From: a virus
Lineage: Duplodnaviria; Heunggongvirae; Uroviricota; Caudoviricetes
Reading direction: 5' to 3' (one strand)
Length of the DNA: 7,936 nt
IMG/VR virus record: IMGVR_UViG_2695420871_000002
Coordinates: 1 to 7,936 of that record
The notes below the pieces were generated by a model that was not told where the DNA came from, did no database searches, and was given only the letters and a program-made list of their open reading frames with translations. Below, in pieces: positions 4,989 through 5,788 of this stretch. Made by a program: the position numbers and the translations under genes. The first letter of the stretch is position 1. Each line of letters opens with the position of its first letter.

Positions 4989-5788
4989 TTACCCCCTGAA
5001 GCCTGGCGGGATCGCACTGTCCGGCAACGAGACGGTGTTAACCTGTCGGAGCAACGTCTCAGGCCGAACACCTTTCGGCGCGAACAGGCCCTGGTATTCA
5101 TTGGCGATGCTGTGTCGAATCACCTGCTCAGGTGTAAAACCCTGCTGACGGAATTTTTCCAGTTCCCGTATCGCCCCGTTAGCGCCCTGCTCCGTTCGAA
5201 TCGGTTTTCGCAATGCCTGTCTGAACCGGACCCACTCATGCCAGAGTGTTTCCGGCAACCAATCGGGCAGCTCAATAGCCTCCGGCTCGAATTTTTTAGA
5301 CGCTCGTTTTTGGCGAGGGGGAGATCAGTATTTAGATCTTCCTCTTCCTCTTCCTCTTCCTCTTCCTCTTCCTCTGGTAACGCTTTTTGATCCGTTTGTG
5401 TAACGCTGGCAGCGTTACCTTTTCGTTTCAGTTCGCGTATTTTTGTTACTCGCTCGTTTGTAACCGCCCGTTTTTTTTTAGAGCTTTTTCCGTTATGACG
5501 TTCAAAGTTAGGTAGAGAAAGCCCACCGTCATTTTCGACCAGCCATCCAACCTGAATTAACGCATCAGCAAAACCAGACATAAAAGTGATGCGATCTATT
5601 GCACTTTTTGTAACGCCGCGAGCGTTACAATCTGCATTACCGTCTATCATTTGTTGATCCGCCCATGCCCAGAAGCGAATAACCTTCCCTAATGCGGCAT
5701 CTGGATCAATATTCAGAATCTCAGCAAGCCTGAATATTTCCGGCTTATCCGGCGTAATAACCTCGAGCTTTATCCAGTTTGAAGCCAT
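4989..5788 (-). CDS. Phage replication initiator (O-like replisome-organizer N-domain plus DnaT/O-like C-domain), read in two frames
   Basis: N-terminal ORF 5120..5788 (MASNWIKLEVITPDKPEIFRLAEIL..., SD AGGTGA before ATG 5788) runs through a 12-Glu tract. The conserved-looking C-terminal domain (KKFEPEAIELPDWLPETLWHEWVRFRQ..., ORF 4989..5258, open to about 5324) is in the -1 frame and has no SD or ATG of its own. The frames overlap across 5258-5324 and include the heptamer A_AAA_AAT (complement of 5291-5297). Confidence 0.7.
5338..5373. repeat. Perfect hexanucleotide tandem repeat (CTTCCT)x6, encoding Glu12 on the minus strand
   Basis: Six exact CTTCCT units counted at 5338-5373, inside the initiator ORF linker. 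Confidence 0.95.
5400..5418. repeat. 19-bp perfect palindrome GTAACGCTG-G-CAGCGTTAC (copy 1 of 3)
   Basis: Read directly. Preceded by a GTAACGCT half-site at 5377-5384 and followed by a T-rich stretch including T9 at 5471-5479. Confidence 0.6.
5610..5628. repeat. 19-bp palindrome GTAACGC-CGCGA-GCGTTAC (copy 2 of 3)
   Basis: Read directly; lies inside the initiator N-domain coding region. Confidence 0.6.

Follow-up and report, generated by a model that had tools for sequence, protein, structure and literature searches.

A Glu-Glu hexanucleotide repeat in a frameshifted prophage replication-initiator gene as the probable variable element of the Shigella sonnei typing marker SS10

The stretch of DNA analysed here, referred to as the window, comprises the 7,936 nucleotides of IMG/VR virus record IMGVR_UViG_2695420871_000002 (Caudoviricetes; positions 1 to 7,936). 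Its open reading frame (ORF) at 5120-5788 on the minus strand is the 5' part of a Rac-like prophage replication-initiator gene, and within this ORF lies a hexanucleotide tract at 5337-5375, which Tandem Repeats Finder describes as having period 6, 6.5 copies, 100% matches and 0 indels (score 78). Read directly, the plus strand runs TCTTCCTCTTCC...CTTCCTCT, while the minus strand gives (GAG GAA)6 and thus twelve consecutive Glu at residues 139-150 of the ORF. A first-pass annotation of the same DNA had described six perfect CTTCCT units encoding Glu12 at 5338-5373, which the repeat finder and the translation bear out; these are the six whole units, and the perfect register continues one base further to the left and two to the right. 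The 33 consecutive period-6 matches have a chance probability of about 4^-33 per start site, and at 39 nt the tract is the longest all-pyrimidine or all-purine run in the window, the runner-up being 15 nt. It has a G+C content of 50% and is unpaired when folded as single-stranded DNA. Tandem Repeats Finder reports no second period-6 array in the window, Rfam has no match at the tract, and the plus-strand ORFs crossing the repeat (poly-Ser, 4878-5390) match no family. An internal translation start after the GAGG-rich tract is unlikely, as by eye no start codon stands at Shine-Dalgarno distance; nor was a consensus for integration host factor with correct spacing seen by eye at GATCAAAAAGCGTTA.

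The nature of the host gene is clearest from the intact 266-aa orthologue of E. coli strain DEC5E, residues 1-266 of which match positions 1-277 of 277 of phrog_2509, 'replication initiation protein' (E 3e-91). In the window, the family is matched not over its full length but only as two pieces in two frames. The ORF at 5120-5788(-) holds the N-terminal DNA-binding module and the linker (phrog_2509 over residues 1-163 of 222 aa, E 6e-74, and orthologue alignment), and passes out of frame after approximately 5322 to reach a premature stop. The remnant of the C-terminal module, which is of YdaU type with a DnaT-like tail, occupies 4989-5324 on the same strand in another frame (translation; phrog_6451 and phrog_678; DnaT tail); this frame is open from 5324 to 4989, and the second phrog piece is the 89-aa ORF 4989-5258. 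The window initiator is therefore a pseudogene of the phrog_2509-type family, which the Prokaryotic Genome Annotation Pipeline (PGAP) calls the 'YdaU family'.

That the two gene halves independently match different PHROG families indicates a modular protein. The AlphaFold2 model of a close intact relative shows a helical/winged N-domain at about residues 10-96 and a three-helix C-domain at about 165-236, with residues 120-160, including the Glu run, disordered (predicted local distance difference test below 50). The description of the repeat as a Glu linker between two domains is hence correct for the family, on the strength of both the model and the PHROG matches. The extreme C-terminus resembles the tail of the primosomal protein DnaT, by a weak NCBIfam match and by a PDB sequence profile; NCBIfam gave nothing else for the initiator, and the DnaT C-terminal tail was the sole match of the PDB profile. 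Foldseek against the PDB returned nothing significant (best E 0.5), and Pfam has no match for the initiator or, even at E <= 1, for the intact orthologue, a TFIIA match being a low-complexity artefact. Directly downstream lies ydaV (4236-4982, minus strand), a DnaC/IstB-like helicase-loader gene (Pfam IstB_IS21, 1e-19, and Bac_DnaA) annotated as ydaV in orthologous loci. The initiator is flanked by a YdaT-family gene upstream and the DnaC-like ydaV downstream, and in E. coli the orthologous locus belongs to a Rac-like prophage that also carries kilR and recE.

When the window is aligned with three E. coli orthologues, few substitutions are seen and most of the difference consists of four length changes: the hexamer copy number; A9 versus A6 at 5471-5479, which is in frame and adds one Lys; a deletion that removed 10 bp between a pair of GGGGGA direct repeats (coding strand TCCCCC), with its junction at window 5317-5322; and a separate C5-to-C4 frameshift in E. 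coli strain 2013C-4974, an independent event in the same C5 run. The junction of the 10-bp deletion is the true frame break. The first-pass annotation had placed the break about 40 bp from the repeat, where the A6/T6 run at 5292-5297 would have been responsible, but T6 is identical in intact relatives and the actual break is only 15 bp away. As the deletion breaks the frame, the tract joins no two domains in the window copy. The same deletion is found in 8 of the 120 IMG/VR loci surveyed below and in S. sonnei ATCC 29930. In 6 of these 8 S. sonnei-type IMG/VR loci the A9 run is A8 instead, which constitutes a second frameshift.

Decay extends beyond the initiator. The upstream ydaT (5866-6220, minus strand) is likewise a pseudogene: about 13 codons at its start (MKIRHEHIESVLL) are off-frame from the 101-aa YdaT_toxin ORF, and comparison with E. 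coli DEC5E shows a 1-nt indel; with initiator and ydaT both frameshifted, the prophage here is decaying. In S. flexneri SFBU1023 and E. coli ECMA0423, the repeat allele starts GTG GAA GAG GAA (Val-Glu-Glu-Glu) and the gene is cut to 210 aa by a further frameshift, another independent decay. Several S. sonnei-type contigs lose their match at window position ~5685, and in four of them the adjoining sequence is the 80-nt element that ends the window (7857-7936), which suggests an insertion sequence (IS) inside the initiator gene of other strains.

The number of GAGGAA units (n) was compared across relatives in two collections. Among complete E. coli genomes, 682 carry the locus, with n decoded from match lengths and the values 2, 5, 6 and 8 verified in sequence; alleles of n = 2, 3, 4, 5, 6 and 8 occur. 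In an evenly spread sample of 55 full-length matches, n was 3 in 50, 4 in four and 5 in one, and a query that ranked long alleles first gave n = 8 in one genome, n = 6 in one, n = 5 in two and n = 4 in at least 40. E. coli alleles of n = 3, 4 and 5 share 100% identical flanks. A pattern scan of IMG/VR yielded 120 loci, distributed as n = 2 (11 loci), 3 (87), 4 (16), 5 (2), 6 (1), 7 (1) and 8 (2). Interrupted alleles such as GAGGAAGAGAAAGAGGAA have n = 3 in 28 of 29 cases, the exception being one GTG-initial allele with n = 5. The eight IMG/VR loci with the window's 10-bp deletion have n = 3, 3, 3, 5, 6, 7, 8 and 8; between several of these and the window there are only 0-4 substitutions in 3-4 kb, with n nonetheless 3, 5, 6 or 8. 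Alleles of n >= 5 account for 5 of the 8 deletion-lineage loci versus 1 of 105 loci of intact type in IMG/VR. Long alleles are nonetheless not confined to pseudogenes, as the gene of E. coli ETEC1738, which encodes 268 aa including E12, is intact; this rules out the notion that n >= 6 occurs only in broken copies.

All alleles differ by multiples of 6, and the tract behaves as a fast variable-number tandem repeat. The expectation that the site would vary between strains, with unit gain or loss preserving the frame, has therefore held: copy number is not identical but ranges from 2 to 8 in E. coli/Shigella relatives, with 3 the commonest, and every difference keeps the frame. Many E. coli alleles encode longer proteins (376-380 aa) owing to an in-frame, phrog_1347-like insert of ~114 aa immediately after 'EEDINTDL', right after the repeat; PGAP annotates these insert-bearing genes as two partial pseudogenes. 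E. coli matches longer by ~340 bp could have been taken for giant repeat expansions, but they carry this insert and have n = 2 or 4.

The window is identical to contig CXEH01000153.1. Its frameshifted 222-aa product is found on 14 contigs, including CXEH01000153.1 and the chromosome CP026802.1, which is that of S. sonnei ATCC 29930 (PMC9430107); the window allele is accordingly genuine, and at least some of S. sonnei is fixed for it. In this species the repeat corresponds to a marker of MLVA (typing by variable-number tandem repeats at multiple loci), SS10. The MLVA26 and 7-locus scheme that contains SS10 is reportedly that of Liang et al. 2007. It is also described by Filliol-Toutain et al. 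2011 (PMC3310650), where SS10 has a 6-bp unit and 9 alleles in 1,672 isolates, ranges over 2-10, 3-8 and 0/3-8 copies for the three main groups of clones, and counts among the eight 'highly variable' loci of the scheme. In a Malaysian isolate set, SS10 showed 6 alleles and a diversity of 0.75 (PMC3420240). The published forward primer, ACGGTGGGCTTTCTCTACCT (PMC3420240, Table 1), has an exact site at 5510-5529 on the minus strand, pointing at the tract (0 mismatches, 0 expected by chance) and lying 135 nt upstream of it in the coding sense. The forward primer facing the tract, the 6-bp unit and the host S. sonnei all agree with SS10; S. sonnei-type loci are multi-allelic (n = 3, 5, 6, 7 and 8), the published range of 2-10 covers both the window's allele of 6 and the observed 3-8, and no difference from SS10 was found. 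The tract at 5337-5375(-), (GAGGAA)6.5 encoding Glu12, is accordingly read as the variable part of this locus, on the basis of the repeat analysis, translation, copy-number survey and literature. The A9 run of Lys codons (5471-5479, minus strand), which is A6 in E. coli, is a second length-variable tract inside the SS10 amplicon, as seen in the alignment and the IMG/VR loci. The typing papers (including PMC3420240 and PMC3310650) treat SS10 as an anonymous size marker, with no gene or coding context, and leave the A8/A9 run in its amplicon unmentioned. A literature search pairing the repeat motif with S. sonnei found nothing.

The tract does not stand alone in its surroundings. The heptamer GTAACGC occurs 8 times in the window versus 0.70 expected, a count reached in 0 of 200 shuffles, and 7 of the 8 copies fall within 5377-5820. 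These make up three 19-nt palindromes of the form GTAACGC-N5-GCGTTAC, together with half-sites, in and just upstream of the initiator gene; as patterns of letters they resemble putative initiator sites. One half-site (5377-5383, plus strand; GCGTTAC on the coding strand) is 1 nt from the tract, supported by its sequence and by codon conservation. Palindrome 1, TGTAACGC-N5-GCGTTACC, at 5399-5419 (core 5400-5418), is iteron-like and encodes G-N-A-A-S-V-T, with a conserved NAxxVT motif and conserved codons; both it and the half-site are where the first-pass annotation had noted them, directly beside the repeat. A GTTAC ... GTAAC pair in the opposite arrangement, with T/A-run flanks, is read directly at 5445-5464. 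Palindrome 2 (5609-5630, core 5610-5628) lies in the N-domain coding sequence and encodes C-N-A-R-G-V-T, and palindrome 3 (5800-5821, core 5802-5820) is found just upstream of the initiator start codon. The in-frame palindromes thus encode a recurring peptide, N-A-x-x-V-T. The number of such peptide/DNA motifs per array is 1 to 4 among homologues, like the residue-adding extra iterons in O of Shiga toxin (Stx) phages. The lowest-GC stretch, 37.5% at 5420-5480, is among the sites, while the purine tract abutting the last half-site is 50% GC.

Around the half-site, CAAAAAGCGTTACCA is kept at all synonymous positions in different genera. In Mixta, Erwinia, Pantoea, Samsonia, Rahnella and Serratia, homologues with 42-69% protein identity retain CAAAAAGCGTTACCA followed by GAG GAA GAG GAA..., with the same codon alternation, and this synonymous-site conservation of a short (GAGGAA)2-4 tract beside the GCGTTAC half-site extends over Enterobacterales. 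When codons at conserved residues were compared pairwise among 16 homologues of different genera (42-69% aa identity), the mean identity was 0.97 in QKALP, encoded by CAAAAAGCGTTACCA, 0.80 in the first six Glu, whose codons alternate between GAG and GAA, 0.79 in the iteron/palindrome codons and 0.42 elsewhere in the N-domain (Mann-Whitney p = 1e-4 and 5e-4; Glu codons versus other two-fold codons, 0.011), the p-values being optimistic as the sequences are related. The tract is the longest purine run of the gene in 18 of 20 coding sequences, and in those 18 it begins 1-24 nt past the nearest upstream GTTAC/GTAAC-type site (1-13 nt in 17). In a homologue from a Thiotrichales metagenome-assembled genome, a 23-nt purine run, (GAGAA)4, is present in another frame and encodes REEKRRE.

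The tract also sits on a mosaic joint, where modules appear to have been exchanged. The C-terminal 119 residues align with K-12 Rac YdaU (b1359; MG1655 1421119-1421976) at 85% identity by BLASTP, and the location of the joint follows from the homology beginning at 'DL(K/N)TD', the residues right after the Glu run; in several genera the C-termini after the tract are unrelated. With K-12 YdaU the initiator shares the C-terminal module from 'DL(N/K)TD...PLNPP' to '...IPPGFRG' and the order ydaT - initiator - ydaV, and some orthologues bear the PGAP name 'phage replication initiator YdaU family protein'. The N-terminal module of K-12 YdaU is, in contrast, unrelated: it is a DUF1376 domain, of which the intact orthologue of the window gene shows no Pfam match at E <= 1, and it has no Glu tract, GTAACGC sites or purine run of 12 nt or more. 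For this reason the embedded sites cannot be called 'oriJ', and the putative origin is distinct from the oriJ module of K-12. Searching the literature for oriJ yielded no information at the sequence level.

The explanation that fits these observations best, and which we consider very probably correct, is that the tract is the SS10 coding microsatellite, slipping by whole units and neutral in this already broken initiator. Slipped-strand mispairing is the standard explanation for whole-unit gain and loss. Whole GAGGAA units would here be gained or lost by replication slippage, each step adding or removing Glu-Glu with the frame unchanged, and because the 10-bp deletion 15 bp away already inactivates the initiator in this S. 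sonnei lineage, length changes would have no protein consequence and would form a neutral, fast-evolving polymorphism. Slippage fits the allele differences in multiples of 6, the variation of pure arrays and the near-restriction of interrupted arrays to n = 3. Several points weigh on the other side. What identifies the tract with SS10 is a single primer together with unit size and allele range; slippage is inferred from the alleles, not observed, and neutrality likewise; and the tract is no recent accident, a shorter version being conserved codon for codon in distant genera, and 'purely neutral' is therefore not the whole story for intact copies, in which n = 3 dominates. The enrichment of long alleles in the deletion lineage could reflect relaxed constraint or a length-dependent mutation rate. 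A perfect, highly variable simple-sequence repeat within a coding region also brings to mind a phase-variation (contingency) switch turning the gene on and off by frameshift, as with the tetranucleotide repeats of Haemophilus and Neisseria surface genes, which likewise combine a perfect short tandem repeat in a gene with fast slippage. This is highly improbable: the 6-nt unit is divisible by three, so that every gain or loss stays in frame and nothing is switched, the frameshifts that do occur come from elsewhere (the 10-bp deletion, C5-to-C4 in 2013C-4974 and the A8 run), and the gene is a prophage replication gene rather than a surface or restriction gene, and is already dead here. Smaller still is the chance that errors of assembly or sequencing produced the tract or its length. 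The window is a short draft contig ending in repeated IS sequence, but the identical allele (n = 6, A9 and the 10-bp deletion) is found on 14 contigs from independent assemblies, one of them a complete chromosome, and a 39-nt array fits well inside single reads.

Two further readings concern the conserved short tract, and both are compatible with a slipping, locally neutral SS10 microsatellite. One places its role in the protein: an acidic linker stretch would be required, and its length would tune initiator activity as an adaptive 'tuning knob'. LP followed by at least 4-5 Glu is (near-)invariant among 25 homologues that are full-length and 58-96% identical, E-runs of 2-12 are spread over 120 database proteins, acidity is retained where the purine run is interrupted, and n = 3 is dominant in intact genes while, as mentioned, n >= 5 is concentrated in the pseudogene lineage. 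Intact genes nevertheless range from E4 to the E12 of ETEC1738 with no sharp length optimum, the corresponding stretch of the Thiotrichales homologue is net-neutral, and the long S. sonnei alleles are equally explained by a length-dependent mutation rate in one clone, so we consider this role, for instance in pairing with the adjacent basic helix KKRAVTNERVTKIRELKRK or in DNA mimicry, rather unlikely. The other reading, which is possible but doubtful, is that the tract is constrained as DNA, as the polypurine edge of an origin embedded in the initiator gene, the Glu run being a by-product of translation. It would account for the clustering of GTAACGC in and just upstream of the gene, for the synonymous-site conservation of QKALP, the first six Glu and the iteron codons, for the position of the longest purine run close behind a GTTAC/GTAAC-type site, and for the purine run of the Thiotrichales homologue, which is kept in a different frame and is not poly-Glu; in lambda, too, iteron 4 is followed at a distance of 20 nt by a purine-only tract of 18 nt, within O. 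On the other hand, the origin is putative, drawn from sequence pattern; n ranges from 2 to 10, so spacing or length is clearly not critical; at 50% G+C the tract is not A+T-rich; in several genera codons containing T break the purine run but the stretch stays acidic (EEELEEE, EVEEEVD); slippage homogenises units and can mimic synonymous conservation; and the relatedness of the sequences makes the p-values optimistic.

The comparison with lambda gives the embedded-origin reading its context. Gene O of lambdoid phages carries the origin at its middle, and additional iterons there lengthen O by further residues (PMC7466680). As in lambda O and ori-lambda, the palindromes resembling initiator sites lie inside the initiator's own coding sequence, in or near the interdomain linker; a purine-only coding-strand tract follows the sites, the number of sites varies in frame between relatives, and the next gene encodes a helicase-loading partner. 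Unlike lambda, however, the N-domain and the sites have no homology to O or to its iterons, there is no Pfam Phage_rep_O match, and the 'O-like' match to phrog_678 is limited to the C-terminal half of the initiator here. The G+A tract of the present gene has 50% GC and specifies Glu, whereas that of lambda is A-rich and specifies Lys/Arg/Glu; the partner here is DnaC-like (YdaV) where that of lambda is P, and the origin here is putative. A tentative proposal that draws the origin and the joint together is that the SS10 repeat is an expanded form of an old polypurine element, CAAAAAGCGTTACCA + (GAGGAA)2-4, which closes the iteron array and marks the joint at which N- and C-terminal modules are exchanged. 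On such a reading, the N-terminal module may be origin-specific and the C-terminal module may recruit the helicase loader, with the Glu run possibly a translated shadow of the DNA element.

The remainder of the window carries several features apart from the initiator region. A homologue of QueH (epoxyqueuosine reductase) is encoded at 2551-3237(-) (Pfam 2e-65) and contains a 12-bp x2 tandem repeat at 2879-2902, and the region 2168-2493(-) holds a hok/gef toxin ORF (2168-2323) with a full-length Rfam match to the sok antitoxin RNA (2318-2493, 117 bits). A 23-bp unit (GTTTTTCTACACAAAAAACTTAG) is repeated 1.9 times at 7037-7080, downstream of a repressor-like helix-turn-helix gene (6575-6982, plus strand) and upstream of a DUF1391 ORF (7185-7340, plus strand). 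The ends of the window, 1-88 and 7857-7936, recur elsewhere in S. sonnei loci as IS ends; the draft contig is only 7.9 kb long because both of its ends are repeated IS sequence.

The variability of the repeat is not new, being that of an established typing marker. The present result places the anonymous marker SS10 in a gene context, as a Glu-Glu repeat within the linker of a prophage replication initiator that is already dead. For typing, the A8/A9 run within the amplicon can shift fragment size by 2-3 nt, in steps that are not multiples of 6. Should the conserved short tract turn out to belong to an embedded origin or a module-exchange joint, the lambda design of an origin inside the initiator gene would extend to an unrelated initiator family, and the alleles of 2-10 units would provide a natural allelic series for the tolerance of origin spacing; on the origin reading, a marker in routine typing use would be reporting length changes inside a phage replication origin.

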